A DNA stretch of 37,520 nt from a virus: IMG/VR virus record IMGVR_UViG_3300045974_000563; one strand, 5' to 3'. Position numbers and translations under genes: made by a program. Numbering within the stretch: position 1 is the stretch's first letter; each line of letters opens with the position of its first letter. This document shows positions 2,579 to 37,520 of the stretch, one piece after another. The notes beneath the pieces are model-generated. The model made no database searches and was not told the DNA's origin. It saw only the letters and a list, made by a program, of their open reading frames with translations.

Positions 2579-2977
2579 TCAAGACTTCCCGCGCCGATCA
2601 CCACCCTGACGCTGGTAGTAATCGGGGTCCGGCTTTTCCGGGGAGCGCCGTTCGTTAGACCGTTTTTCCGGAGATCCCGTGGCGACAGGCGGCACAATGC
2701 AGATAAAAGGACCGTTTTCGTCGCCGATGGGTTGGAGCGGAATCGCCGTCCTACCTGCAGCAAATCCAATCGGCAAACCATCCTGCACGTTTGGGTATAT
2801 ATCGGGCCTTATCTGATGCGGGGTTACCACCCAGCCAGTCTTTTCAGCAGCATCCAGAACGCGCTCAGCCGGCACGCCATCGCGCACCCATTTGCGAAAT
2901 GCTTCTCCGGAAACACCATTCGCACGGGCCGCCGCAGCCTTAGTCTTATAAAAAAGGAGTAGTGACATGGCGCACAT
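2579..2977 (-). CDS. Cro/YdaS-like HTH regulator. The probable start is the ATG at 2968
   Basis: N-terminus KTKAAAARANGVSGEAFRKWVRDGVPAERVLDAAEKTGWVVTPHQIRPDIYP resembles Cro/YdaS-type HTH proteins. It is divergent from the repressor gene. The long C-terminal tail is unverified. Confidence 0.55.
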   Translation of the reverse strand: MCAMSLLLFYKTKAAAARANGVSGEAFRKWVRDGVPAERVLDAAEKTGWVVTPHQIRPDIYPNVQDGLPIGFAAGRTAIPLQPIGDENGPFICIVPPVATGSPEKRSNERRSPEKPDPDYYQRQGGDRRGKS

Positions 2978-3521
2978 TATTGCAACCGATAGTTGCCATA
3001 GTCAACAACTGATTCGTGCAGCGATTATGAATATTGTGCAACCCATGGTTGCAAATACTAAAAAAGACTTCGCGGACCGCCTGAATTTATCCTGCGATAA
3101 CGCGAAACCGCCCGTCATTTCCGGCCGGGGTAGGCGTGCAGAACTAAAACGTCGGGTGTATGCGTGCGGATTGACCGTATCCGGAGAATCCGTTCGTAAA
3201 TGGCTCAGCGACGAATCAATACCATCGATGGATAACGTGCGATTTATCGCTATCGCATTGGGCGTGGAAGCAGACTGGCTACTTACGGGCCGGGCGGTAC
3301 CGGATCACCGCCAGGCGGATTACGATGTAAAATCTGCAGCGCAAGTCCTAGAACTCAATGAGCCAGCAGCATCACCATTCTTAAGCGCCCGTCAAAGACA
3401 TATCCAGGAGATCGTTGAACTTCTAAGCACTATCAACGATTATGGTGTGGTAATCGTGCGCGATAAAGCGAAGGACATGTCCCTTGAATTTCCCGTTGAT
3501 CTATCGCAAACGGGATCGTGA
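2967..3521 (+). CDS. CI-like XRE-family repressor without an S24 peptidase domain. The true start is probably ATG 3027 or 3045
   Basis: HTH segment LTVSGESVRKWLSDESIPSMDNVRFIAIALGVEADWLLTG. Divergent from the cro-like gene. The first 60-80 nt of the track ORF overlap the cro start and the operators. I see no Ser/Lys autocleavage motif. Confidence 0.6.
   Translation: MAHIIATDSCHSQQLIRAAIMNIVQPMVANTKKDFADRLNLSCDNAKPPVISGRGRRAELKRRVYACGLTVSGESVRKWLSDESIPSMDNVRFIAIALGVEADWLLTGRAVPDHRQADYDVKSAAQVLELNEPAASPFLSARQRHIQEIVELLSTINDYGVVIVRDKAKDMSLEFPVDLSQTGS
2976..3005 (-). promoter_or_regulatory. Leftward early promoter: TTGACT (3005..3000) - N18 - TGcAATAAT (-10 at 2981..2976)
   Basis: Hexamers read on the minus strand. 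The same GTTGTTGACT -35 context is duplicated at 4394..4403. The predicted start site falls near the ATG at 2968. Confidence 0.45.
2981..3054. promoter_or_regulatory. Operator repeats TGCAACC-N3-RGTTGCM at 2981..2997 and 3037..3053 (perfect palindrome tgcaacc-cat-ggttgca), with a degenerate copy at 3004..3020
   Basis: 17-bp inverted repeats seen directly. Related copies occur at 4383..4399 and 4427..4443. Confidence 0.6.
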
Positions 3522-4382: not shown

Positions 4383-4444
4383 AGCAACTATTGGTTGTTG
4401 ACTCCATGGAATTTCAGGTGATACAGTGCAACCATTAGTTGCCA
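4383..4444 (+). promoter_or_regulatory. Rightward early promoter: TTGACT (4398..4403) - N18 - TGaTACAGT (-10 at 4422..4427), flanked by operators at 4383..4399 and 4427..4443
   Basis: Hexamers and operator repeats read directly. Same architecture as the leftward promoter. Confidence 0.5.
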
Positions 4445-4601
4445 TTAACCAACCAGGAGCACCAAATTACCCTCACCCTCGCCGGCCTCAAAGTCCACCT
4501 CGCCCACTGCGCTTTGGACCACCGCCACGGCCGTAGCATCGGCCTGACCTTCACGGCCAGCGGCATCCCCGCCGTCCCGGTCCGCCACTGAGGCGAATGC
4601 C

Positions 4602-4874
4602 ATGCCCATTCGCCACTACCTAAAACTCAACGAATTGCAGCAGGACGAACTTAAAGGCCTGTTCAACCGCCTGCGTAAAACGCCCGGCGGCGAGCTGATG
4701 GCCCAGGTCTGGAAAGACGGGGCGGTCGTCAGCCTGATCGACGCGCGAATGGTCGACGCCATTCAGGCGGTGACCGGCCAAACAGGGACCAGCCGATCTG
4801 CCCTGGAAAACTTTAACCATCCCGCCGCACCGAATATCGCCAAGGCCTTTGCCGAAGAGGATCACACCCAATGA
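4602..4874 (+). CDS. Hypothetical protein (90 aa), first gene of the rightward operon
   Basis: ORF track. Its stop overlaps the start of the next gene. Confidence 0.5.
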   Translation: MPIRHYLKLNELQQDELKGLFNRLRKTPGGELMAQVWKDGAVVSLIDARMVDAIQAVTGQTGTSRSALENFNHPAAPNIAKAFAEEDHTQ

Positions 4875-5503
4875 CCACCGACAACACCCTAGCCAGCCTC
4901 AAACGCCGTCTCGAAAAAGCCGAACTGGTGCATCTGCGCAACCATGCCGGAGAACTGGCATCTCGCCTGGAACGCGCCGAAGAAGAATCAACATCTGCCT
5001 GGGCCGCCGCCGAAATGTGGCGTGAAGATCACCTGCAGCTCATGCAGGAATTGGCTGCTGATGGCCACGCTATCGGCCTGACCAAGGAAGGTACCGTCGG
5101 CCTGATGGCCGAAATAAAATCATCCGCCTGCGCCATCGGCGAACAATGGCCAGGCACCGACGCCATCTATGCCGGAATCTCGCTGTCAAGCGACAACGCC
5201 CGTGCCGTGCATCTGATCCTGTGGCCGGAAACCAATACCAAGCAACTCGATCACGCCGCCGCCATCGCAGTAGCGGAAGCCGTCAATCCGGAGCACGGAA
5301 GCCATATTCCAACCCGGATTCAGTCCGTGACCCTGTACGGCAATTTGAAGGATTGCTTCGACAAGTCGCCCTGGTACTGGACATCCACAAAACACGAGAA
5401 CGGCGAGTGGGCGTTCATCCAGTTCTTCAACAACGGCTACCCGGACCTCCACGACCTCTCTGCCGAGTGTCGGGTCCGTGCCGTCAGCGAGATTCCACTT
5501 TAG
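4871..5503 (+). CDS. DGR target protein 1 (type A): N-terminal coiled coil plus DUF1566/C-type-lectin-like C-terminus carrying VR1
   Basis: C-terminus WYWTSTKHENGEWAFIQFFNNGYPDLHDLSAECRVRAVSEIPL. The last ~80 nt match the TR except at TR adenines. Confidence 0.85.
   Translation: MTTDNTLASLKRRLEKAELVHLRNHAGELASRLERAEEESTSAWAAAEMWREDHLQLMQELAADGHAIGLTKEGTVGLMAEIKSSACAIGEQWPGTDAIYAGISLSSDNARAVHLILWPETNTKQLDHAAAIAVAEAVNPEHGSHIPTRIQSVTLYGNLKDCFDKSPWYWTSTKHENGEWAFIQFFNNGYPDLHDLSAECRVRAVSEIPL
5410..5488 (+). repeat. DGR variable repeat VR1
   Basis: Aligns without gaps to TR 10808..10886. There are 8 differences, all at TR adenines (aac->ttc, tac, gac, ctc, cac; cag->ccg). Confidence 0.9.
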
Positions 5504-5537
5504 TCCTTCAACCCTTCAATACTTAAGCCCTTTCGCC

Positions 5538-5744
5538 ATGCTCAATCCTTCTGCAACGACGCGAGCTGTAGTGCACGATTTTGAAGTCACCATGCATCGT
5601 AAGGCCTGCCTGAATGCCAATGAAGCCGCCCGAAAATGCATCGTGTTCGTGCGCGCCACCGACGTCGGAGAAGCCAAGAAAGCTGCAGATCGTCTGCCTC
5701 ATAAACGCGCTTTCATGGCCATGTCGGCAAGGCAAGTCAAATGA
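5538..5744 (+). CDS. Hypothetical protein (68 aa from ATG 5538)
   Basis: ORF track frame. The track start at 5478 is a GTG inside VR1, so the ATG at 5538 is preferred. Confidence 0.4.
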   Translation: MLNPSATTRAVVHDFEVTMHRKACLNANEAARKCIVFVRATDVGEAKKAADRLPHKRAFMAMSARQVK

Positions 5745-5908
5745 TCGCCGCCATTTTCTTTCCAGCCGATCCGGAAGCCTGTGTTTTCGATCTGGTCGAG
5801 CAGGCGCACCAGGCGCAGCGCGCCGGCCTGCGCCTCTATACCAACGGCATCCGCTTCGCCCTGCTGCCGCACCCGATCGCTGGATGGGCACTGTGGGGAA
5901 CGCGCTGA
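5741..5908 (+). CDS. Hypothetical small protein (55 aa; below the track cutoff)
   Basis: The ATG at 5741 overlaps the upstream stop as ATGA. The stop at 5906..5908 lies 2 nt before the next ATG. Confidence 0.35.
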   Translation: MIAAIFFPADPEACVFDLVEQAHQAQRAGLRLYTNGIRFALLPHPIAGWALWGTR

Positions 5909-5910
5909 TC

Positions 5911-6243
5911 ATGGCCCGCCATAGCAACCCTTTCGGCGCATTTGAGATCGATTCATTGCCCGGCCAAAGCCAGGTCGCTGTCTGCCATGCCTTCTTTGTT
6001 CCCGAAGACCTGCGCGGCCGGGGCTATGGCCATTGCCTGAAAGAACTGCAAGAGATCGAGCTGGATATCCAGCATTACGACCTGGCTATTTGCACGGTGG
6101 CCGCCGGCAACAGGCGTCAAAAGCGCGTACTCAAGCAGGCCGGCTGGCGCTATCTGATCGGCTTTCGTAATCGCCGCTCAGCGGAGACCACCGAACTGTG
6201 GTGCCGAGGTGGGCAGGCCGCGGAATCCTCATGCGACGCCTGA
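5911..6243 (+). CDS. Small GNAT-like acetyltransferase (110 aa)
   Basis: The motif VPEDLRGRGYGHCLKEL fits the R/Q-x-x-G-x-G/A acetyl-CoA loop, and KRVLKQAGWRYL is GNAT-like. The start is taken at ATG 5911 inside track ORF 5614..6243. Confidence 0.5.
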   Translation: MARHSNPFGAFEIDSLPGQSQVAVCHAFFVPEDLRGRGYGHCLKELQEIELDIQHYDLAICTVAAGNRRQKRVLKQAGWRYLIGFRNRRSAETTELWCRGGQAAESSCDA

Positions 6244-6329
6244 TCGAAACCGTCCTCATCTCGATAGCCATCATCGTCTGCGGCGACGTGGCCAGCGGCG
6301 GAAACCAGATTGAGGGCTACGGCGAATGA
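6231..6329 (+). CDS. Possible 32-aa membrane peptide
   Basis: Translates as MRRLIETVLISIAIIVCGDVASGGNQIEGYGE, with ATGA overlap to the next ORF. Very short, so uncertain. Confidence 0.25.
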   Translation: MRRLIETVLISIAIIVCGDVASGGNQIEGYGE

Positions 6330-8470
6330 TTACCGGACCCACCGTCATTACCGGACCCACCGTCTTACTCGAAGGAACCATCTCAATGAATGACCTGACC
6401 GACCTCAAGCACATCGAAGCGACTCAGCTCTGCCACAGCCAGGCGCTGCTGATTGCCGAGATCCACCCCAGCCCAACCAACCCGCGCAAGACCTTCCCCG
6501 AAGCCGATATGGCGGAGATGGTCGACAGTGTCAAGCGCCACGGTGTCATGCAAGCCATCCTAGTCCGCCCGTGGCCAGAGGCCTATGCCTTCGAGGGCGA
6601 GCGCCCGAAGTATGAACTGATTGCCGGCGAGCGCCGCTATCGCGCTGCTAAAACCGCCGGCCTGACCTACATCAGCGCCACCGTTCGCGATCTGGATGAT
6701 CATGAAACCCTCGAGCTGCAGATCGTCGAGAACCTGCACCGCAAAGACCTTAACGAGCTCGAAGAAGCCGAAGGCTACGAGATGATGGTCAAGCGCTATG
6801 GCTACACCGCCGAGCAGCTGGCTGAGAAGATCGACAAGAGCAAGGCCTACATCTACGCGCGCCTCAAGCTGACCGCCGCCGGCGAAGCAGCCCGTACTGC
6901 ATTTCGCGAAGGCCACCTTGATGCTTCTCGCCTTCTGTTGATCGCCCGGATTCCGACTGAAAGGCTACAAGAAGAAGCGTTGGCAGAAATCAACGACGAA
7001 GGCTATCGCGGGCCCATGAATTACCGCCAGGCGGCGAAATACATCCAGGAAAACTATATGCTGGATCTGGCCAAGGCACCTTTCTTGTCGTCCGACCCCG
7101 AGCTTATTCCCATGGCCGGCCAATGCGGAACCTGCCCCAAGCGAACCGGCAACAATCCAGATCTTTACCCAGAGGTGAAAAGTGCAGACATCTGCACCGA
7201 CACAGCCTGTTTTGCGGCCAAGAAAACCGCCCACTTCGTCCGCATCAAGGATGCTGCCAAGACGCAAGGTAGAACCGTAGTTGATGGTGAAGCCGCCGTA
7301 AAACTGCTACGCAACGGCGATTGGGATATCAAGGGCTTCGTCAAACTTGACGATAAATGCTACCAGGCAGGTTTCCGATCAGAAGGTGGATATCCCACCT
7401 ATCGCGAATTATTGGCTGATAAAGGCGTACCGGTCACGCTGATCGAGAAGCTGGACGGCACGCTGATCGAGACGGTCGAGGAGAAAGCCTTCACCGCTAT
7501 CGCCGCCGAAGTCGGCGCCAAGCCCAAGACAACGAGCAACAGCGGCGATAAGGAGCGCACCGCTAAGGAAAAAGCCGAAAACGAATTCCGCCAGCGCCTG
7601 TTTGATCAGGTCAGCCGCGCCTATCAGGAATCATTTGACGGGCAAGACCACCTGGATATCTTCAGCCTGCGTTTGATCGCTCGCCAGTTCTTTTCCTGTA
7701 CCTGGAACGAATACCAGAAAAAGCTGGCCACCCGCTGGCTACCCAGCGAAGAGAAAATCGACTCGCACGAGCGCATCCAGCAACTCACTCGGCTGATCGA
7801 TACCATGCCGTTGGCGCAGCTTAATCTGTTCATGATCGAACTGGCCCTGATCGGCATGTCGCACGTCGGTAGCTATGGCGCTACGGAAACTCCAGCCCCC
7901 TTCCTCGCTGCCGCTCAGCATATGCTCATCTCGCCAGACACGATTCGGCGCGAGATCAAGGCCGAACAGGATGCCAAGGCGGCTGGCAAGGGCAAGAAGG
8001 CGGCGAAGACCGCAAGCCCGGAGTTTGCCGAAGGCAGCTATGTCGAGATCATCGCCTACGATACCCAGAAGGATCTGATTGGTTCCTTTGGCCAGGTCAA
8101 AGCCGTCGGCCGCGCCATCGCTTCCGGAAAACCGATCTACACGCTGCTGCTCGCCGATGGCCTTTCCCTAGTTGCCGATTCAACCGAGCTAGCCAGCGCC
8201 ACACAGGCCGCTTTCGAGACCCAACAGGACGAACGCAATCCGGCGAATGCCGCCGCACAGGCCGGCGACGAACCCGCCGTGGTCCACAGCAAACGTGTTG
8301 TCACCCCCATCGCTTATCGCCACCCCGACAACGTCGGTCTGGCATGGACAGGCCGCGGCCGTCAGCCCAAATGGGTTGAGCACTGGCTGGCGCAGGACGG
8401 TAACACCCTGGAACAGCTTGCTGTTGGCCAGCCGCGCTGTGACAAGACGATTGACATCCCCGGGCTGTAA
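6326..8470 (+). CDS. ParB/Srx N-terminal domain protein with a Cys-rich ribbon and an H-NS-like C-terminal DNA-binding domain
   Basis: YELIAGERRYRAAKTAGL...IVENLHRKDLNELEEAEGY is the ParB box. Cys cluster: CGTCPKRTG...ICTDTAC. C-terminus AYRHPDNVGLAWTGRGRQPKWVEHWLAQDGNTLEQL carries the H-NS TWTGRGRxPxW motif. An alternative start is ATG 6386. Confidence 0.7.
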   Translation: MITGPTVITGPTVLLEGTISMNDLTDLKHIEATQLCHSQALLIAEIHPSPTNPRKTFPEADMAEMVDSVKRHGVMQAILVRPWPEAYAFEGERPKYELIAGERRYRAAKTAGLTYISATVRDLDDHETLELQIVENLHRKDLNELEEAEGYEMMVKRYGYTAEQLAEKIDKSKAYIYARLKLTAAGEAARTAFREGHLDASRLLLIARIPTERLQEEALAEINDEGYRGPMNYRQAAKYIQENYMLDLAKAPFLSSDPELIPMAGQCGTCPKRTGNNPDLYPEVKSADICTDTACFAAKKTAHFVRIKDAAKTQGRTVVDGEAAVKLLRNGDWDIKGFVKLDDKCYQAGFRSEGGYPTYRELLADKGVPVTLIEKLDGTLIETVEEKAFTAIAAEVGAKPKTTSNSGDKERTAKEKAENEFRQRLFDQVSRAYQESFDGQDHLDIFSLRLIARQFFSCTWNEYQKKLATRWLPSEEKIDSHERIQQLTRLIDTMPLAQLNLFMIELALIGMSHVGSYGATETPAPFLAAAQHMLISPDTIRREIKAEQDAKAAGKGKKAAKTASPEFAEGSYVEIIAYDTQKDLIGSFGQVKAVGRAIASGKPIYTLLLADGLSLVADSTELASATQAAFETQQDERNPANAAAQAGDEPAVVHSKRVVTPIAYRHPDNVGLAWTGRGRQPKWVEHWLAQDGNTLEQLAVGQPRCDKTIDIPGL
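6329..6364 (+). repeat. Perfect 18-bp tandem duplication attaccggacccaccgtc x2
   Basis: Read directly. It encodes ITGPTV ITGPTV if the ParB-like ORF starts at 6326. Confidence 0.9.
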
Positions 8471-8495
8471 TTCATCCACAACGAAAGGAAGATTC

Positions 8496-9092
8496 ATGCA
8501 ACAAACGCAAACCCCGCAAATCGGCACTGCCTTCGAAGGCGGTTTCTTTGGCGGCGTCATCAACGTCAATGGCCATCACAAGGGCGTCATCTGGGCCCCG
8601 AAAAAACCCGGCAGCTTTCCTGCCGTTCTGTTGGATGAAGACAAAATCGTCACCGATGCCGGCAGCCCGTTCGACTGCCTTAACAATACTCTGGCGCTGC
8701 TCTCCGCCGGCAGCCATGCCGCCAAGTATGTAACGGGTCTGAAGATCAACGGCTTCCAGGACTGGCTGATTCCATCGCGCGACGTGCTCGAGCTCGGTTA
8801 TCGCCACTTCAAGCCGACCACGGACACGAACTGGTGTAGCTGGCGCGACGGCGAGAACCACAACAGCGTTCCACCAGGCTGGCTCTACACCCGTCAACTG
8901 CCTAGCCAGACATCACTCGAAGCCTTCAAGGCCGGCGGCGATGAGGCCTTCGATGTCGTCTGGCATTGGTCATCAACCGTACATCCCGATGGCGACTCGG
9001 CGTTCATCCAGCACTTCTTCCTCGGCAGCCAGTGCGACAGCGCCCTCTCTGCCGAGTGTCGGGTCCGTGCCGTCAGGCTGATTCAACTTTGA
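8496..9092 (+). CDS. DGR target protein 2 (type B): DUF1566/C-type-lectin-like, carrying VR2
   Basis: ATG 8496 follows RBS aaaggaag. Motifs GGFFGG...DWLIPSRDVLEL...WHWSST...AFIQHFFLGSQCDSALSAECRVRAVRLIQL. The 3' end matches the TR. Confidence 0.85.
   Translation: MQQTQTPQIGTAFEGGFFGGVINVNGHHKGVIWAPKKPGSFPAVLLDEDKIVTDAGSPFDCLNNTLALLSAGSHAAKYVTGLKINGFQDWLIPSRDVLELGYRHFKPTTDTNWCSWRDGENHNSVPPGWLYTRQLPSQTSLEAFKAGGDEAFDVVWHWSSTVHPDGDSAFIQHFFLGSQCDSALSAECRVRAVRLIQL
8996..9076 (+). repeat. DGR variable repeat VR2
   Basis: Ungapped alignment to TR 10805..10885. There are 11-13 differences, all at TR adenines. Confidence 0.9.
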
Positions 9093-9127
9093 TCCTTGAA
9101 TCCTTCAATACTTATCAGGAACTCATC

Positions 9128-9721
9128 ATGCAGCCCACCAATTTCACTATCGGCGCCGCCCTTGAGGGCGGATTTTTCGGCGGAATTATCAACGTCTCCG
9201 GTCAACAAAAAGGCGTCATCTGGGCGCCGAAGCAGGAAGGCCAGATCAAGGCTCGCCTGATGCCGCAAGGTCGCCGCATCCTGTCGGCCCATAGCCCGAA
9301 TGACTGCCTGACCAATACGCAGCAATTGCTTGGTGTCGGCAGCCCAGCCGCTCAGCGCATCGCCGAAATGAACATCAATGGCTTCGCCGACTGGCTCATT
9401 CCGTCCCGCGACGTGCTCGAACTCGGCTATCGCCATTTCAAGCCGACCACCTACAAAAACTATTGCAGCTGGCGCGATGGCGAGAACCTCAACAGCGTTC
9501 CACCAGGCTGGCTCTACACCCCGGAACATCCGGCGCAGACGGCACTGGTTGATTTCCAGATAGATGGCACCGAAGCCTTCGACGATTACTACTACTGGAC
9601 CTCGACCGTCCTGCCGACTGGCGAAACGGCGTTCTTCCAGACCTTCCTCAACGGCGTCCAGGGCGACAGCGTCCTCTCTGCCGAGTGTCGGGTCCGTGCC
9701 GTCAGGCTGATTCAACTTTAA
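9128..9721 (+). CDS. DGR target protein 3 (type B, tandem paralog of target 2), carrying VR3
   Basis: MQPTNFTIGAALEGGFFGGIINV...DWLIPSRDVLELGYRHFKPT...YYWTST...AFFQTFLNGVQGDSVLSAECRVRAVRLIQL. Confidence 0.85.
   Translation: MQPTNFTIGAALEGGFFGGIINVSGQQKGVIWAPKQEGQIKARLMPQGRRILSAHSPNDCLTNTQQLLGVGSPAAQRIAEMNINGFADWLIPSRDVLELGYRHFKPTTYKNYCSWRDGENLNSVPPGWLYTPEHPAQTALVDFQIDGTEAFDDYYYWTSTVLPTGETAFFQTFLNGVQGDSVLSAECRVRAVRLIQL
9625..9705 (+). repeat. DGR variable repeat VR3
   Basis: Ungapped alignment to TR 10805..10885. There are 11 differences, all at TR adenines, including atc->ttc. Confidence 0.9.
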
Positions 9722-9757
9722 CCCTTGAATCCTTCAATCCTTCATCGGAAAACCACC

Positions 9758-10240
9758 ATGAAACTGCATATCGAGAATCTCAATATCACCGTGTCTCACC
9801 CTCAGCAGCCTGCAGGGCTGCTCGCGACGCTGGCCTTTGCCAACGCCGTATCCAGCACGCCAGCACCAGCGATCGGCGAGAAATGGCCGGGCACCGAAGC
9901 CACCTATGCCGGCATCGCGCTTTCCAGCGCCGGCGACAGCCTCGTCCATCTGCTGCTCTGGGATGAGTCGAACGATATCGCCCTGCCCTACGCCAAAGCT
10001 GTTGCCTACGCCGAAACGGTAAATCGCGACATGAACAGCCACCTCCCGACGCGCCATCAAAGCATCACGCTCTTCGAGAACCTGCAGGCCAGCTTCAACC
10101 AGGACTACTACCACTGGACGCTGACCAAAACCAAGAGCGGTAAATCGGCGTTCATCCAGTTCTTCACCTACGGCTACCAGTACACCTGCGACCTCTCTGC
10201 CGAGTGTCGGGTCCGTGCCGTCAGCGAGATTCCACTTTAA
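9758..10240 (+). CDS. DGR target protein 4 (type A paralog of target 1), carrying VR4
   Basis: ATG at 9758 (the track start 9725 is a TTG). IGEKWPGTEATYAGIALSS... parallels target 1. C-terminus AFIQFFTYGYQYTCDLSAECRVRAVSEIPL. Confidence 0.85.
   Translation: MKLHIENLNITVSHPQQPAGLLATLAFANAVSSTPAPAIGEKWPGTEATYAGIALSSAGDSLVHLLLWDESNDIALPYAKAVAYAETVNRDMNSHLPTRHQSITLFENLQASFNQDYYHWTLTKTKSGKSAFIQFFTYGYQYTCDLSAECRVRAVSEIPL
10144..10225 (+). repeat. DGR variable repeat VR4
   Basis: Ungapped alignment to TR 10805..10886. There are 9-10 differences, all at TR adenines. Confidence 0.9.
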
Positions 10241-10280
10241 TCCTTTAACCCTTTAGTCCTTTAGTCCTTTAGTCCTTCAA
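10241..10280 (+). repeat. Five tandem octamers (tcctttaa ccctttag tcctttag tcctttag tccttcaa), starting at the first base after the target-4 stop
   Basis: Read directly. Shorter arrays of the same octamer follow the stops of targets 1-3 (5504..5519, 9093..9108, 9722..9745). Confidence 0.9.
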
Positions 10281-10282
10281 CC

Positions 10283-10660
10283 ATGCTTCATACCAACCTG
10301 CCGATTTACAAGAAGGGTTACGACTTGTTAACCCTTGCCGCCGATGTTCAGCTGAACATGCCCCGCACGTTCAAGCAAAGCCTCGGCAAGCGCGTTTCAG
10401 ACGAATGCGTCGATCTGCTCCTCGAAATCGGCTACGCCAATGCCAGCCGAGGCGAAGCACGCTGCGAGCACATCCGCAGCGTGCTTCGCGGGCTGGAAGT
10501 GGTCTCACTGATGATGCGAGTCAGTTTCGACAAGGGCTTTATCTCGCGAAAGATATGGGCCTGCAGCATCGAAATGACCAGCACCATTGGCGGCCAGGCA
10601 GGCGGATGGCTGAAGAAGTCAGCACCCGCGTCTGATTCACAGGGGTCAAGGCTCCTATGA
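10283..10660 (+). CDS. avd: DGR accessory variability determinant (Avd-like four-helix-bundle protein)
   Basis: 125-aa basic helical ORF directly upstream of the TR and RT. N-terminus LPIYKKGYDLLTLAADVQLNMPRTFKQSLGKRV is typical of Avd. Its stop overlaps the RT ORF ATG (ATGA). Confidence 0.8.
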   Translation: MLHTNLPIYKKGYDLLTLAADVQLNMPRTFKQSLGKRVSDECVDLLLEIGYANASRGEARCEHIRSVLRGLEVVSLMMRVSFDKGFISRKIWACSIEMTSTIGGQAGGWLKKSAPASDSQGSRLL

Positions 10661-11988
10661 CCGTGCGCTTTATGAATCTGGTCGCACCCCTGCCCCACAA
10701 GGGCACGGACATGCACACCACGGATACCGCAGATCTCTTCTCTGGCTGGTCCGGTGCAGTTTCCCCGCTGAACAGTCAGCAGGGCGACGTCGATAGTGCG
10801 AACGAACGGCGTTCATCCAGAACTTCAACAACGGCAACCAGAACAACAACGACCTCTCTGCCGAGTGTCGGGTCCGTGCCGTCAGCAGATTCATCCCACT
10901 ACACCTTCGAGTTGTTGCTGCGTGCGTATCTGGATTGTCGCAAGCACAAGCGCAACTCGAAGAGTGCCCTGGCCTTCGAGCAGGATCTCGAACGCAACCT
11001 GTGGCAGCTGCACCTGGAACTGAGCGACGGTTCCTACTCCCCCGGAAAATCGATCTGCTTCGTCATCACGCGCCCGAAACCGCGCGAAGTATGGGCTGCC
11101 GATTTCCGCGATCGCATCGTGCATCACCTGTTGCACAACCAGGTTGGCCCCCGCTTCTACGCCCGCTTCATTGCCGACTCCTGCGCTTGCATTGCCGGCC
11201 GTGGCACACTGTACGCAGCTGAACGACTCGAGGCCAAAGTCCGCAGCATTACGCAAAACTGGCGGCGCCCGGCCTACTACCTCAAGTGTGACCTGGCCAA
11301 TTTCTTTGTCGCGATCGACAAGCACATTGTGCAGGCACTGTTCGCCAAGCACATCAACGAACCATGGTGGCTGGCGCTGGCAGAAACCATCCTGTTTCAC
11401 GATCCGCGCCAGAACTTTGAATACCAGGGCAACCCGGCTTTACTGGAACGCGTTCCGCCGCATAAGCGCCTGAGCAGCCAACCGGCCCACCTTGGGCTGC
11501 CGATCGGCAATCTGTGGTCGCAGTTCTCCGCCAACGTTCTGCTCAATGTGCTTGACCAGTTCGTCAAGCACGAGCTGCATTGCCGGCACTACATCCGCTA
11601 CGTCGATGATTTCATCCTTCTACACGAGTCGGCACAGTGGCTCAATGCCGCCAAGGCCCGGATCGAGCAGCTGCTTGCCAAACAACTGGCAATGCATCTC
11701 AACCCCAGCAAAACCATCCTGCAGCCCATCAAGCGCGGCATTGATTTCGTCGGCCAGGTCACTAAGCCCCATCGCCGCACTCTGCGCCGCAAAACCTTCA
11801 AAGACGCCATCCGGCGACTCGAATCCATCGACGCCACCGATGTTTTTCAGACGGCCAACAGCTATTTTGGCCTTCTTCGTCAGACCACCCACAGCCATCA
11901 AGACCGGGCCATTCTCAGCAACACCCTTCGCCATCGCGGCCACAGCATCAAGGCCGATCTCACCAAGACCTATCGGAGAACCGCATGA
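10657..11988 (+). CDS. DGR reverse transcriptase (true start uncertain; the TR lies within the 5' part of the long ORF)
   Basis: RT motifs FRDRIVHHLL, GLPIGNLWSQFSANVLLNVLD (DGR-type IGNLTSQ-like) and YVDDFILL. Follows avd and the TR. Confidence 0.9.
   Translation: MTVRFMNLVAPLPHKGTDMHTTDTADLFSGWSGAVSPLNSQQGDVDSANERRSSRTSTTATRTTTTSLPSVGSVPSADSSHYTFELLLRAYLDCRKHKRNSKSALAFEQDLERNLWQLHLELSDGSYSPGKSICFVITRPKPREVWAADFRDRIVHHLLHNQVGPRFYARFIADSCACIAGRGTLYAAERLEAKVRSITQNWRRPAYYLKCDLANFFVAIDKHIVQALFAKHINEPWWLALAETILFHDPRQNFEYQGNPALLERVPPHKRLSSQPAHLGLPIGNLWSQFSANVLLNVLDQFVKHELHCRHYIRYVDDFILLHESAQWLNAAKARIEQLLAKQLAMHLNPSKTILQPIKRGIDFVGQVTKPHRRTLRRKTFKDAIRRLESIDATDVFQTANSYFGLLRQTTHSHQDRAILSNTLRHRGHSIKADLTKTYRRTA
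10805..10886 (+). repeat. DGR template repeat (TR), rich in AAC codons in the VR reading frame
   Basis: aacggcgttcatccag AAC ttc AAC AAC ggc AAC cag AAC AAC AAC gac ctctctgccgagtgtcgggtccgtgccgtcagc. It carries A wherever the four VRs differ. Confidence 0.9.
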
Positions 11989-12827
11989 CCATTCCGCTTT
12001 GCATTTACCACCACGCCTGCGCAGATGGCGTTGCCGCTGCCTGGGCGGTGCGCGAGCACTATCGCCTCAAAGGCAGCGATGTTGAATTCTTTCCCGGCAT
12101 CTACGACGAGGCGCCGCCCGACGTCACTGGACGCGATGTGATCATGGTCGATTTCAGTTACAAGCGCCCAGTCTTGCTGCAGATGGCCGAGCAAGCCAAT
12201 AGTCTGCTCGTCATCGACCATCATAAAACCGCTATGCAAGATATTATCGATCTTCCTTTTTCGATCGATCTGGAATTTTCCCTTAACCATTCGGGCGCAA
12301 TGCTTGCATGGAACCGCTTTCACCCAGGCCAAGATGCACCGCTGCTCTTCGATCATATCCAGGACCATGACCTCTGGCGCTTCGCGCTTAGCCATACCCG
12401 TGAGATCACCGCCGCCGTCTATTCCCACCCGATCACACCAACGAACTTCGGCGACCTAATCAACGCCGGTATCCGGTCGCTGATCGCCGAAGGGATTTCC
12501 CTGTTGCGCAAGCAGCGTCATGACATCGATGCCATTATCCGCGATGCAGTTCGCCAGATGCGCTTTGGCGAGACGCTGGTCCCCGCCGCCAACGTACCCT
12601 GGATGTACGCCAGCGACGTCGCCGGGATCCTGGCCGAAGGCCAACCCTTTGCCGTCACCTATTACGACGATGCCAAGGGCCGGCGCTTTTCCTTGCGTTC
12701 CACCCCGGACGGTGCAGACGTCTCCACGATCGCCGAGGCCTTCGGCGGCGGCGGTCATGAACATGCGGCCGGATTTCGCATGACGCGGGAAGAAGCGATC
12801 GATTTCGAAGTGGCGGGAGGGGTGTGA
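11985..12827 (+). CDS. DHH/DHHA1 family phosphoesterase
   Basis: Motifs HHACADG, IMVDFS, VIDHHKT, QDHDLW and GGGGHEHAAGF. The ATG overlaps the RT stop (ATGA), with ggagaa as the RBS. Confidence 0.75.
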   Translation: MTIPLCIYHHACADGVAAAWAVREHYRLKGSDVEFFPGIYDEAPPDVTGRDVIMVDFSYKRPVLLQMAEQANSLLVIDHHKTAMQDIIDLPFSIDLEFSLNHSGAMLAWNRFHPGQDAPLLFDHIQDHDLWRFALSHTREITAAVYSHPITPTNFGDLINAGIRSLIAEGISLLRKQRHDIDAIIRDAVRQMRFGETLVPAANVPWMYASDVAGILAEGQPFAVTYYDDAKGRRFSLRSTPDGADVSTIAEAFGGGGHEHAAGFRMTREEAIDFEVAGGV

Positions 12828-13327
12828 TCGTGAGCCACACAAATATACCCTGGTCAACCAGAACCGGGCGCCATCTCGGTGAAACGCTCATCGTTGGGGA
12901 TAATGGCCGTCAGGTCATCGGATATTTTCAGCAGCCCAATATCGGGGGGTCACACGAAGACAATGCGCTACGAACCATCTCCTGCGTCAATGCCTGTGCT
13001 GGAATTCCCAACGACTATATCTCTAATGTTGTTTCCTTTGGCCTTCAAGGTCACAACAAAGTTTCAGACGATCTAATGGCAGCTCGAGATGCTTTGCTGC
13101 ACGAAGGCATGCAGCGCGATGACCTTCTGGCTGCACTTCACGCGATTGTTGCAGAACTTAACCAAGGATTGAACTGCTCGCAAACGACCATTCGTAAAAT
13201 AACTCAGGAAGCCATCGCCAGCGTGGAAGAATCGGCAGTTGTCAAGGATTCCTTGACAACTGAAATATCAATCCCCGCCCTCGTCTTCTACCCTGCCGGC
13301 AGCCTGGGCGAAGAGGTGCAGCCTTGA
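12824..13327 (+). CDS. Hypothetical protein (about 165 aa), more AT-rich than its neighbours
   Basis: ORF track. GTG start at 12824 or 12830 after gggagggg. Overlaps both neighbours. Confidence 0.5.
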   Translation: MIVSHTNIPWSTRTGRHLGETLIVGDNGRQVIGYFQQPNIGGSHEDNALRTISCVNACAGIPNDYISNVVSFGLQGHNKVSDDLMAARDALLHEGMQRDDLLAALHAIVAELNQGLNCSQTTIRKITQEAIASVEESAVVKDSLTTEISIPALVFYPAGSLGEEVQP

Positions 13328-13845
13328 CCTGGCTACTCACCGCCTCCGGCAAGCAGTTCGATCCCGTCGACCCGCAACCCGACATGATTGACTTGGTCGA
13401 TATCGCCAATGGCCTATCGAACGAATGCCGCTTTGCCGGCCAGTGTCGATACTTCTACAGCGTCGCCCAACACTCGGTACTGGTCAGCCAGAACGTACCC
13501 CGCGAAAACGCCTGGGAAGCTCTGCTGCATGATGCCGCGGAAGCCTATATCAAGGATATCCCGGCGCCGATCAAGCGACTGCTCCCAGACTACCGCGCCC
13601 TCGAGCACAAGATCGAGGCCGCGATCCGCGCCCGCTTTGGCCTGCCGGATAGCCAGACACCCATTGTCAAGCATGCCGATCTCGTTTTGCTCGCCACCGA
13701 GCGCCGTGACCTGATGCCGCAAGATGGCAGTTCCTGGCAGATGCTCAAGGGGATCACTCCGCTCGATAAGCGCATTCGGGCCGTGCATTCATCAGCCGCC
13801 AAATCCCTGTTCATGCAGCATGCTCTGGAGGTACTGCAGGCATGA
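13324..13845 (+). CDS. HD-domain phosphohydrolase (YfbR-like 5'-nucleotidase type)
   Basis: SVAQHSV...LLHDAAEAYIKDIPAPIK...HADLVLLATE match the HD metal-binding motifs. TTG start overlaps the upstream stop. Confidence 0.65.
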   Translation: MTWLLTASGKQFDPVDPQPDMIDLVDIANGLSNECRFAGQCRYFYSVAQHSVLVSQNVPRENAWEALLHDAAEAYIKDIPAPIKRLLPDYRALEHKIEAAIRARFGLPDSQTPIVKHADLVLLATERRDLMPQDGSSWQMLKGITPLDKRIRAVHSSAAKSLFMQHALEVLQA

Positions 13846-14507
13846 AGAATCGCCGCGTTCACTGGTCTGAGCCTTTGACCGAACTGCTCATCGAGACGTA
13901 TCCGCACATCCCGACCCAGTGGCTGGCCAGCGTTCTTAAAATCAGCATCCAGGCCGTTTACAACAAAGCCTTGTCACTGGGCCTGACCAAGACAGCCGAA
14001 TTTATGGCCAGCGAATTTGGCACTCGCCTTCGCCGGGGCGACCAGATTTGCGCTGCTACACGTTTTCGAAAAGGGCAGACCCCCTGGAACAAGGGGAAAC
14101 ATTACGTCGCCGGAGGCCGGTCAGCTGATACCCGATTTACGAAAGGTAATCAATCCGGCCGGGCCCGACAGCTTTATCAGCCGATCGGCAGCGAGCGCCT
14201 GAGCAAGGATGGCTATCTGCAGCGCAAGATCAATGACGACATGCCCCTGCAGAGACGCTGGCGCGGTGTCCACATCATCAACTGGGAAGCCATCAATGGC
14301 CCCCTCCCACATGGCCACGCTCTCATCTTCAAGGATGGCAACAAACAGAACACCGATCCGGAAAATCTGGAACTCGTCACTCGTGCCGAACTGATGCGCC
14401 GAAATTCATGCCATCGCTACGGCAAGGAAATCGCCCAACTCGTTCAGCTTCGCGGCGCCCTCACTCGTAAGATCAACAGCATCGAAAGGAAACAACATGG
14501 CCAATGA
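13842..14507 (+). CDS. HNH (HNH_3-type) homing-like endonuclease with N-terminal HTH
   Basis: VHIINWEAINGPLPHGHALIFKDGNKQNTDPENLELVTRAELMRRN. The ATG overlaps the HD gene stop. Confidence 0.65.
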   Translation: MKNRRVHWSEPLTELLIETYPHIPTQWLASVLKISIQAVYNKALSLGLTKTAEFMASEFGTRLRRGDQICAATRFRKGQTPWNKGKHYVAGGRSADTRFTKGNQSGRARQLYQPIGSERLSKDGYLQRKINDDMPLQRRWRGVHIINWEAINGPLPHGHALIFKDGNKQNTDPENLELVTRAELMRRNSCHRYGKEIAQLVQLRGALTRKINSIERKQHGQ

Positions 14508-14811
14508 CACCATCGAACTGCGCAACATCCTATTCGACACCCTGCGCGATCTCCGCGACAAGAAAGACCCGATGGATATCGAGCGCGCCAGGACGATTAG
14601 TCAGGTAGCGCAGACCGCAATCAGTTTGGCCAAAGTCGAGGTCGACCACATGAAGGTTACGGGAGCGCCATCGTCATCCGGCTTTCTGCCAGCACCGGCT
14701 ACGCCGACGGCAACCGGATCAAGCACTCAACAGGTTCCCGCATTGCCGAAAACACCCGGCGTTGCTGAACAGATCATGGCGGCCAATGTCACCCGCCATG
14801 AGTGCAAGTAA
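14497..14811 (+). CDS. Hypothetical protein (104 aa)
   Basis: ORF track. RBS aaaggaaac. Confidence 0.5.
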   Translation: MANDTIELRNILFDTLRDLRDKKDPMDIERARTISQVAQTAISLAKVEVDHMKVTGAPSSSGFLPAPATPTATGSSTQQVPALPKTPGVAEQIMAANVTRHECK

Positions 14812-14838
14812 CGCCATAGTTTAAAACCGGAACATTCC

Positions 14839-15123
14839 ATGGCACGCTACGTCCTCATCGCCAAATTCTGTGAGCTGACAGGCTACACAGACACGGCCGT
14901 GCGTGCCAAGATTAGAGATGAAGTATGGCTGGAAGATCAGGAATACAAAAAAGCACCTGACGGCCACATCGTTATCGACATGGATGGATACGAATTATGG
15001 GTGGAGAAAGGTCTTACGAAGGGGTTCGCTCCCGTAGCGCAAAAAGCATCGAGATCGATTTCATCTACCGGGAAGAACGTTGCCGGGAAACATTCAGGAT
15101 CGCCCCAACCCCTGCAAATCTGA
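14839..15123 (+). CDS. xis: Excisionase-like protein
   Basis: Small ORF just upstream of and overlapping int. FCELTGYTDTAVRAKIRDEVWLEDQEYKKAPDGHIVIDMDGYELW resembles excisionase-type winged-helix proteins. Confidence 0.55.
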   Translation: MARYVLIAKFCELTGYTDTAVRAKIRDEVWLEDQEYKKAPDGHIVIDMDGYELWVEKGLTKGFAPVAQKASRSISSTGKNVAGKHSGSPQPLQI

Positions 15124-16205
15124 AGAAGGTGTCCCGGCATCGAGCTTCGATCCTCGATGCGATCGCGCACAATATTTTCGACTATGCTGTCACCTTCCCG
15201 GAATCCAAAAACCGCTTCAAATTTGCCGACCGGCCACAGAGCGCCGGTACTTGCCTAGAGGACTATCTCGAAATATGGATCACGGGCAAGCAGAAGCAGC
15301 TGAAGGCCAGCACCTGGGCTGGATATAACAAAATTGTCATCATGCTCAACCAGACCGACCTGGGGCGCATCCTGCTGCCCGATCTTCGCCGAGTTCACGT
15401 GCGCGACTGGTGCAAGAAGCAGGTGAGTAGTAACAAATGGCTGGCCAACGTGCAAAGTGTGCTGCGCTCGGCTCTGCAGGATGCCCTGGATGATGACCTG
15501 ATCGAAACTAATCCGCTCTATGGCTGGAAGTATGAAAATGCCGACACCATCAAGGTCAAGGATGACGTCGATCCGTTCGAATCAAACGAGCGCGAGGCGA
15601 TACTGGCCGCCATGATAGAGCCTCAGCACAAAAACATGTTCGAGTTTCTGTTCTGGACCGGCCTGCGCACATCAGAGCTGGTCGCGCTGACCTGGGACGA
15701 TATCGACTGGATACGCGATGAGGCCAGAATCAACAAGGCCAAGACGCAGTTTGCCGACGAGCCGGAGACAACCAAGACACGCAAGGGAATCCGCGATGTC
15801 AAACTGCTCGCGCCGGCCCTGGCCGCACTCAAGCGCCAAAAGGAACAGACATTTTTACAAGGGGGAGTTATTTTCCGCGATCCGCGCACTGGCGAACCGT
15901 GGGAGGGCGACGAGGCGATCCGCCAAGGCCCCTGGAAGACGGCGATCAGGAAATCTGGGGCCAGATATCGACGCCCCTACCAAACACGTCATACCTACGC
16001 ATCCATGATGCTCACTGCGGGCGAGCCGCTTGGATGGGTTGCCAATCAAATGGGGCACAGCGATCTGAGCATGCTGGCCCGGGTGTACGCCCGGTGGATC
16101 AAGTCGGCGACACCCGATGTGGGCAACAAAGCCGTGGCCATGTTTTCCGCCAATAAAACCTGTGACTCAAATTGTGACTCAGCGAAGTCAAATGACGATA
16201 TATAA
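14997..16205 (+). CDS. int: Tyrosine integrase (lambda-type, with arm-binding N-terminal domain)
   Basis: GVRSRSAKSIEIDFIYREERCRETF is the N-terminal domain. The catalytic region includes TGLRTSELVALTWDDI and TRHTYASMMLTAGEPLGWVANQMGHSDLSMLARVYARW. Confidence 0.9.
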   Translation: MGGERSYEGVRSRSAKSIEIDFIYREERCRETFRIAPTPANLKKVSRHRASILDAIAHNIFDYAVTFPESKNRFKFADRPQSAGTCLEDYLEIWITGKQKQLKASTWAGYNKIVIMLNQTDLGRILLPDLRRVHVRDWCKKQVSSNKWLANVQSVLRSALQDALDDDLIETNPLYGWKYENADTIKVKDDVDPFESNEREAILAAMIEPQHKNMFEFLFWTGLRTSELVALTWDDIDWIRDEARINKAKTQFADEPETTKTRKGIRDVKLLAPALAALKRQKEQTFLQGGVIFRDPRTGEPWEGDEAIRQGPWKTAIRKSGARYRRPYQTRHTYASMMLTAGEPLGWVANQMGHSDLSMLARVYARWIKSATPDVGNKAVAMFSANKTCDSNCDSAKSNDDI

Positions 16206-37166: not shown

Positions 37167-37520
37167 TCAGCGCTTCAGACGGGCCGACAACTGGCCTTCC
37201 ATCAAGCTGGCAGAGGCGACCAAGGCGTAGACGCCCTGGCGAACGACCTCCGTGTAATGCGATATATCCCGTTCTCCCGTCCCGTTACATCGCGGACAAG
37301 GAACAACCTTGTCCTCGACCATGACCATCGACCGCCCATCACATGTCATGCACCGACCGTTGTTCCACACATCGAGCGCCTTCCACGCTGCCCCATTCGC
37401 CACATCAGCCGGATGCCCCATCTCGATCAACGTCGTTGCCAGGTGCAGGACGATGTTCCAGGCGTTCGCTGCAGTCGGTTCACTCGACAGGTAGCGCACT
37501 ACGGCAAAGCCCAGCGGATT
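37167..37520 (-). CDS. Q-like late antiterminator, 3' part (joins 128..244 across the circular junction; about 156 aa in total)
   Basis: Two CxxCxGxG-type knuckles (CMTCDGRS, CPRCNGTG). Lies between the replication module and the late operon. Family assigned by recollection. Confidence 0.5.
   Translation of the reverse strand, partial: NPLGFAVVRYLSSEPTAANAWNIVLHLATTLIEMGHPADVANGAAWKALDVWNNGRCMTCDGRSMVMVEDKVVPCPRCNGTGERDISHYTEVVRQGVYALVASASLMEGQLSARLKR
37394..37520. repeat. Second copy of the 127-bp terminal repeat
   Basis: Identical to 1..127. Confidence 0.95.

Follow-up and report, generated by a model that had tools for sequence, protein, structure and literature searches.

DHH and HD Phosphohydrolase Genes Adjoining a Diversity-Generating Retroelement Are Very Probably Ordinary Early-Operon Genes of a Temperate Phage

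The window analyzed here is IMG/VR record IMGVR_UViG_3300045974_000563, a stretch of 37,520 nt in which the reverse transcriptase (RT) gene of a diversity-generating retroelement (DGR) is directly followed by genes for a DHH/DHHA1 phosphoesterase, an uncharacterized protein of 167 aa, an HD-domain phosphohydrolase, an HNH endonuclease and a small protein, p104. We found that these five are very probably ordinary, individually exchangeable genes of an early operon, and that they and the DGR are independent modules of one operon. The DGR, made up of target genes, avd, template repeat (TR) and RT, is a module of its own which in this phage happens to lie immediately upstream of the DHH gene.

Results

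DHH and HD Genes in Relatives Without the DGR

Searching IMG/VR with the DHH protein yielded three contigs of about 38 kb, namely L003/G001, L004/G002 and L005/G003 (L and G codes denote the compared loci and genome records). The gene order was targets, avd, RT, DHH and HD in L003; p209 homologue, DHH, a 94-aa open reading frame (ORF) and HD in L004; and p209, ParB, DHH and HD in L005. No target gene, avd or RT was observed at the L004 and L005 loci. The search for the RT was also carried out over the whole records G002 (94% complete) and G003 (92% complete), and none was obtained, while G001 gave a hit of 775 bits with this query. The large terminase of the window is 94% identical to that of G002, 83% to that of G003 and 83% to that of G001, so the closest relative of all is one without a DGR. 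In both G002 and G003 the DHH and HD genes are intact and lie at the same position, with all catalytic residues conserved. The preliminary description had proposed that DHH and HD might assist the DGR, and had kept as a fallback that they are ordinary phage nucleotide-metabolism genes adjacent by chance; the presence of the pair at the same position in G002 and G003 contradicts the former, and it is the fallback that the evidence favors.

To the left of the cluster, DNA homology between the window and L004 ends at 6327 and restarts at 11983, two bases ahead of the DHH ATG, and that between the window and L005 restarts at 11994. A 5.65-kb segment with ParB, targets, avd, TR and RT (window 6328-11982) is replaced in L004 by about 90 bp (9909-9998). 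Since this segment is missing from a relative with 94% terminase identity, the DGR module must have been gained or lost recently between near-identical backbones. In the same type of DNA comparison with relatives, the 167-aa gene (12835-13261) and HNH-p104 came out as separate indels, and each gene boundary in the cluster is a mosaic joint.

Other contigs showed the same independence. L009, which belongs to an Azonexus metagenome-assembled genome (MAG), and L013 carry ParB, DHH and HD without RT; no RT was found in the record of L015/G008, and the sole RT of L010 lies on another contig, at 38% identity. A ParB-like homologue directly abuts DHH in L005, L009 and L013, being the left neighbor of DHH in the DGR-less relatives. 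In L012, L014 and the metagenome contig L108, on the other side, the RT is directly upstream of DHH. In the DHH tree, both main clades contain a mixture of members with and without a DGR, and the window groups as sister of L004, which lacks one (support 84/92).

Gene Junctions

The four ORFs from the RT stop onward had been described earlier as a single translational unit, and this reading was judged correct; each 4-nt junction is seen in the sequence, and co-translation is what we infer from the overlaps. The RT stop TGA (11986-11988) shares bases with the DHH ATG at 11985-11987 (ATGA at 11985), the DHH stop (12825-12827) overlaps the GTG at 12824 of the 167-aa gene (GTGA), the stop of the latter (13325-13327) overlaps the TTG of HD at 13324 (TTGA), and the HD stop (13843-13845) overlaps the HNH ATG at 13842 (ATGA). 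HNH and p104 overlap by 11 nt.

Overlaps of 4 nt are also found at p90/p210 (4871) and avd/RT (10657) of the same operon, which makes the overlap a trait of the whole operon. In L004 the DHH ATG overlaps the stop of an unrelated preceding gene, likewise by 4 nt. Furthermore, the first ORF after the RT in 73 loci of related RTs fell into 57 sequence clusters, the largest being C-5 cytosine methylase, ParB-like and HNH. An overlap with the RT stop was seen at 26 of these loci, 20 of them with exactly 4 nt, and the overlapping genes belong to about 15 unrelated families. As genes so diverse overlap the RT stop, the RT/DHH coupling is generic operon packing; the 4-nt overlap thus reflects a compact operon and no dedicated link between RT and DHH.

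In this RT clade, the gene most commonly found directly after the RT encodes a C-5 cytosine DNA methylase (L030, L040, L042, L060, L062, L085 and L083), often with a 4-nt overlap, and a DNA methyltransferase gene comes next after the RT in Burkholderia phage vB_E192a.

Neighborhood Counts Around RT and DHH Genes

Neighborhoods were counted by tblastn with the window's own proteins, among IMG/VR loci that are phylogenetically non-independent. The nearest RT relatives were 80 in number, 57-77% identical to the window RT, and 72 of them had at least 1.5 kb of downstream DNA. A DHH gene followed the RT in two of these 72 loci, both of which had already been found via DHH. An HD gene was present within about 4 kb in nine, downstream of the RT in two and upstream in seven (2.8-4.1 kb, before the targets). 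When two further RT clades were searched (seeds Bacteroides phage F2 and Vibrio phage VP58.5), neither DHH nor HD was observed at any of the 85 loci. An enrichment of DHH and HD genes near DGR RTs, a point raised in the preliminary description, is therefore not borne out (DHH in 2/72 of the nearest clade, DHH and HD in 0/85 of the others).

Counting from the DHH side gave a similar picture. The DHH family comprises 2684 proteins at E <= 1e-10. A distant set of 80 metagenome loci with relatives 27-51% identical included 38 with at least 2 kb upstream, and an RT was upstream in a single one of the 38, L108, a close relative of this phage. Genome-level statistics were centered on the Azonexus MAG G004: a DHH homologue was detected in 13 of the 401 genomes of its order, with a DGR RT in none of the 13. 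The GenBank phage set held DHH in 106 records and HD in 337. The DHH neighborhoods of three phages were inspected, those of Caulobacter phage CcrSwift, Polaromonas phage Tiera and Vibrio phage P2, and no DGR gene or RT was annotated within the surrounding few kb.

HD genes upstream of the targets were seen in L044, L048, L052, L056, L057, L066, L071 and L074, and an HD gene of phrog_318 is also directly upstream of the targets in Pseudomonas phage LPPA56 (L001 6011-6553).

These counts bear on the idea that DHH and HD are a lineage-specific, facultative aid to the DGR, being co-translated with the RT and clearing template-RNA/cDNA remnants or shifting local pools of deoxyribonucleoside mono- and triphosphates (dNMP/dNTP). 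The idea would agree with the 4-nt RT/DHH overlap accompanied by GGAGA 6 nt before the DHH ATG, with an RT-DHH junction inherited as a block in five contigs, and with HD lying near the RT in nine loci. We nevertheless regard it as very improbable, for the DHH-HD pair is intact in the closest DGR-less relatives, DHH is missing from 70 of the 72 nearest RT loci and from all 85 loci of other clades, and HD, where present, is mostly on the opposite side of the cassette. If the idea were true, the two enzymes would alter homing efficiency or the adenine mutation spectrum.

A published survey recognized no accessory DGR genes beyond Avd, HRDC, MSL and CH1 (Wu et al., 2018; PMC5758913), a set which includes neither DHH nor HD. 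No homology to Avd, HRDC, MSL or CH1 was found for the DHH, HD and HNH proteins, with MSL and CH1 excluded by domain assignments alone. Like the recognized accessory genes, the cluster directly follows the RT on the same strand and is probably co-transcribed with it; unlike them, it is unconserved across related DGRs and is kept in DGR-less relatives, and the element has its own Avd. The same survey cautioned that genes which a small number of related phages have in common carry little weight as evidence (Wu et al., 2018; PMC5758913), and the case of DHH and HD fits this caution. Our literature search for a link between DHH proteins and DGRs returned nothing relevant.

The DHH Protein

The identities assigned earlier to the DHH/DHHA1, HD and HNH genes hold: all three proteins match a PHROG family (phrog_4771, phrog_318 and phrog_1891, respectively), and the Pfam DHHA1 and HNH_3 scores are above cut-off. 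For the DHH protein, Pfam DHHA1 gave 28.6 bits (cut-off 25.9) and Pfam DHH gave 24.7 bits (cut-off 28.1). In an alignment of 53 homologues the metal ligands D14, D56, D78-H79-H80, D127 and D129 and the GGGH of DHHA1 (255-258) are invariant. An AlphaFold2 (AF2) model built on this alignment had a predicted local distance difference test (pLDDT) value of 93.9, and the best solved matches in Foldseek were mycobacterial NrnA/Rv2837c, TM1595 (the pApA phosphodiesterase of T. maritima), the catalytic domain of GdpP, PggH and DhhP. Probability was 1.0 to NrnA, Rv2837c, TM1595, GdpP and the cores of RecJ, the last being lower in the ranking.

Compared with the stand-alone enzymes of the NrnA/NrnB type (B. 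subtilis NrnA, M. tuberculosis Rv2837c/CnpB and T. maritima TM1595), the window protein shares the DHH+DHHA1 fold (E about 1e-11) and keeps the metal-binding Asp/His motifs and GGGH; it differs in being about 16% identical, about 40 residues shorter and a member of a phage-borne family, phrog_4771. An NrnA orthologue was ruled out, as the protein scored 19.8 bits against the NrnA equivalog NCBIfam NF053633, whose cut-off is 350; it is NrnA-like in fold and motifs only. The label of the Joint Genome Institute (JGI) on some DHH homologues is 'oligoribonuclease NrnB/cAMP/cGMP phosphodiesterase'.

Two other roles for this protein have to be weighed against nucleotide turnover. The first is that of a RecJ-like exonuclease specific for single-stranded DNA, which would serve recombination or replication in the manner of exo and bet in the lambda early-left operon. 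Some phage homologues are indeed annotated as single-stranded-DNA-specific exonuclease, RecJ cores are among the structural matches, and in Polaromonas phage Tiera the DHH gene adjoins those for primase and DNA polymerase I (PolA). Against this, the 280-aa protein has DHH and DHHA1 only, without the OB-fold and C-terminal domains of RecJ, and the top fold matches are stand-alone NrnA-type enzymes; such a role is thus unlikely. About as doubtful is counter-defense, in which the NrnA-like DHH, possibly with HD, would destroy second messengers or linear intermediates of the host (pApA, pGpG, cyclic oligoadenylates), unrelated to the DGR. Phage counter-defense genes are often found among variable early genes, where the DHH gene is also placed, and the structural matches include phosphodiesterases of pApA, pGpG and c-di-NMP (TM1595, Rv2837c, GdpP, PggH and DhhP). 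On the other hand, none of the five proteins had a match in PADLOC, a library which covers defense and not anti-defense; the neighbors of the Tiera homologue suggest DNA metabolism; and an experimental link was not found in the literature searched.

The HD Protein

The match of the HD protein to phrog_318 covers residues 1-171. This family is annotated as a deoxyribonucleoside 5'-monophosphate phosphatase of phages, an annotation whose source we take to be phage T5 Dmp. The metal motif (H50, H69-D70, D119) is present, and the protein aligns with the uncharacterized Atu1052, its nearest solved structure (2gz4, 1e-15). The score was 21.8 bits against Pfam YfbR-like PF12917 (cut-off 25.9) and 16.4 against NCBIfam PRK03826 (cut-off 122). 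Among HD 5'-deoxynucleotidases (E. coli YfbR, phage T5 Dmp), it is therefore alike in its full-length phrog_318 match and H...HD...D motif, and it differs in falling under both the Pfam YfbR-like and the NCBIfam cut-offs and in having Atu1052 as the closest solved relative. Temperate phages of enterobacteria, e.g., SfV (orf30) and the Stx2c phages, commonly carry HD homologues in their early regions.

A general functional pair of DHH and HD was considered and rejected; the pairing holds for this lineage and the Caulobacter jumbo phages, and in the wider family it occurs in 2/49 loci and 1/13 genomes. In Caulobacter phage CcrSwift, the HD gene (gp055) stands two genes before the DHH gene (gp058).

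The 167-aa Protein, HNH and p104

The protein encoded between DHH and HD gave no Pfam or PHROG family, and its homologues likewise had no Pfam match. As the homologues start with MSHT, the GTG at 12830 is the likelier true start; it lies 2 nt beyond the DHH stop and has GGAGG 9 nt upstream, so the junction is still tight. The AF2 model was weak (pLDDT 69.5, predicted template modeling score 0.35). The gene is absent in L003 and L005, and L004 retains only its tail, in the 94-aa ORF (10933-11217); it is an independent insertion between DHH and HD.

The family (22 hits) is marked by an HTPEPW N-terminus, a CVNACAG motif and an invariant C-terminal tail, PA(I/L)VFYPAGSLGEEV. This tail has no secondary structure in the model and is possibly a docking peptide. 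A 64% identical copy of the protein is encoded directly after the RT in L020 (about 7669-8229).

HNH-p104 is absent in L003, L004 and L005 and present in L012 and L108. HNH was found in 10 of the 72 nearest RT loci, with p104 adjoining it in nine of the ten; it was downstream of the RT in 9/72 and abutted it in four (L027, L066, L076 and L093). HNH-p104 was considered as a partner of the RT on account of the nine downstream cases and rejected, as an HNH homologue also adjoins DHH in settings that lack a DGR (L010, and Vibrio anguillarum phage P2, where it is just upstream of DHH).

The DGR Module

The variable repeats of the target genes lie at about 8995-9113, 9624-9742 and 10143-10261. The RT frame opens at the ATGA overlap with avd and reads on through the TR (window 10657-10922). 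Tblastn matches of RT relatives (55-77% identity) reach residues 1-6 of the window RT ORF, and GenBank annotations, e.g., that of vB_E192a, place the RT start after the TR. At L011 551-1357, DHH is abutted by two target-like ORFs (p210/tgtC-like), and neither avd nor RT lies between them; the two may be what is left of a DGR, or orphan targets on a fragment of 11.7 kb.

Genome and Early Operon

Positions 1-127 and 37394-37520 of the window are identical (127 bp), which indicates a circularly assembled genome of about 37.4 kb; it is complete and belongs to a temperate tailed phage whose host is probably a betaproteobacterium like Azonexus. The minus strand encodes large terminase, portal, major capsid, a 1580-aa tape measure, holin, endolysin and spanin between 16777 and 36205. 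The plus strand carries a single tightly spaced gene run at about 4400-16205, from the small proteins p90, p210 and p209 to the integrase. No promoter-like or terminator-like signal exceeding shuffled expectation was detected between the genes of this run. In the consensus scan the promoter-like sites, the one at the head of the operon among them, were no more numerous than in shuffled sequence; this site adjoins a repressor-like gene (2967-3521), a position that would fit an early promoter. No match to the window integrase was obtained in G001, G002, G003 and G008, which points to different integration modules in these relatives. The features are collected in Table 1.

Table 1. Features of the DGR, the downstream gene cluster and the remainder of the early operon.
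Feature	Coordinates	Strand	Basis and remarks
Promoter-like site at head of rightward early operon reaching int	4398..4427	+	Consensus scan only
ParB-like protein, 714 aa	6326..8470	+	phrog_4715 at 4e-38
Three tandem DGR target genes	8471..10240	+	3' ends carry variable repeats; repeat family D1 shared with template repeat
Avd, canonical DGR accessory protein	10283..10660	+	phrog_3206 at 8e-22; Pfam bAvd 34 bits
DGR reverse transcriptase ORF	10657..11988	+	phrog_1423 at 2e-111; Pfam RVT_1
DGR template repeat, inside 5' part of long RT frame	10804..10922	+	Repeat family D1
DHH/DHHA1 phosphoesterase, 280 aa	11985..12827	+	phrog_4771 at 3e-92 over full length; NrnA-like two-domain fold
Uncharacterized 167-aa protein	12824..13327, likely start 12830	+	Insertion between DHH and HD
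HD-domain phosphohydrolase, 173 aa	13324..13845	+	phrog_318 at 3.9e-78
HNH_3 endonuclease, 221 aa	13842..14507	+	Pfam HNH_3 57 bits (cut-off 24.8), residues 142-186; phrog_1891 at 2.7e-48
p104, 104-aa protein	14497..14811	+	phrog_2044 at 5e-10
Excisionase	14839..15123	+	phrog_9668 at 2e-17
Tyrosine integrase, final early-operon gene	14997..16205	+	Pfam Phage_integrase, Arm-DNA-bind_2; phrog_1

Discussion

Judged by fold and family, DHH and HD most likely act in nucleotide turnover, as early-operon genes whose role does not depend on the DGR. DHH is an NrnA/NrnB-like two-domain phosphoesterase that would cut short oligonucleotides, linear dinucleotides or pAp down to mononucleotides, and HD would be a 5'-nucleotidase like YfbR and T5 Dmp that dephosphorylates (d)NMPs. 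Whether or not a DGR is present, the two enzymes together could plausibly complete the breakdown of nucleic acids or adjust the pools of nucleotides at an early stage of infection or induction. HNH and its small partner p104 behave as a mobile endonuclease cassette.

The operon which holds these genes probably spans from the immunity region to xis-int, in a layout like that of lambda pL. The lambdoid early-left operon ends in xis-int, and the window genes are likewise placed between genes of the immunity/replication type and xis-int, with tight stop/start packing and with single genes present or absent among close relatives. The two differ in gene content and, probably, in host, that of the window being Azonexus-like, and the boundaries of the window operon are predicted ones.

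Several points weigh against this interpretation. The RT-DHH junction is common to five contigs (window, L003, L012, L014 and L108), with DNA homology unbroken across it, so that in this one lineage the two genes have often been co-inherited and their co-expression is likely. The adjacency of DHH and HD is limited to this lineage and the Caulobacter jumbo phages, with HD in 2 of 49 distant DHH loci; being so confined, it leaves a two-step nucleotide-turnover pathway as something that we infer. Both proteins score far under the curated NrnA and YfbR equivalog cut-offs, and the substrates named above are predicted ones. Counts made with the window's own proteins would also miss unrelated DHH or HD families near other DGRs. 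A facultative benefit of DHH and HD to the DGR would be compatible with the comparative data, at a probability that we put very low.

The result is chiefly a negative one, in that it takes away an attractive group of candidates for 'new DGR accessory genes'; the cluster genes add new members to phage gene families already known, and their arrangement is an ordinary one. In the widespread group of early-operon DGRs, the downstream neighbor of the RT is highly variable and is often stop/start-overlapped regardless of its product, from which it follows that adjacency or a 4-nt overlap in phage operons is no proof of functional linkage. The comparison further shows that the DGR module ends on its right-hand side at the RT stop, and close relatives differ by the presence of the whole module. 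This boundary, together with the presence or absence of the module as a whole, is useful for the study of DGR movement between phages.

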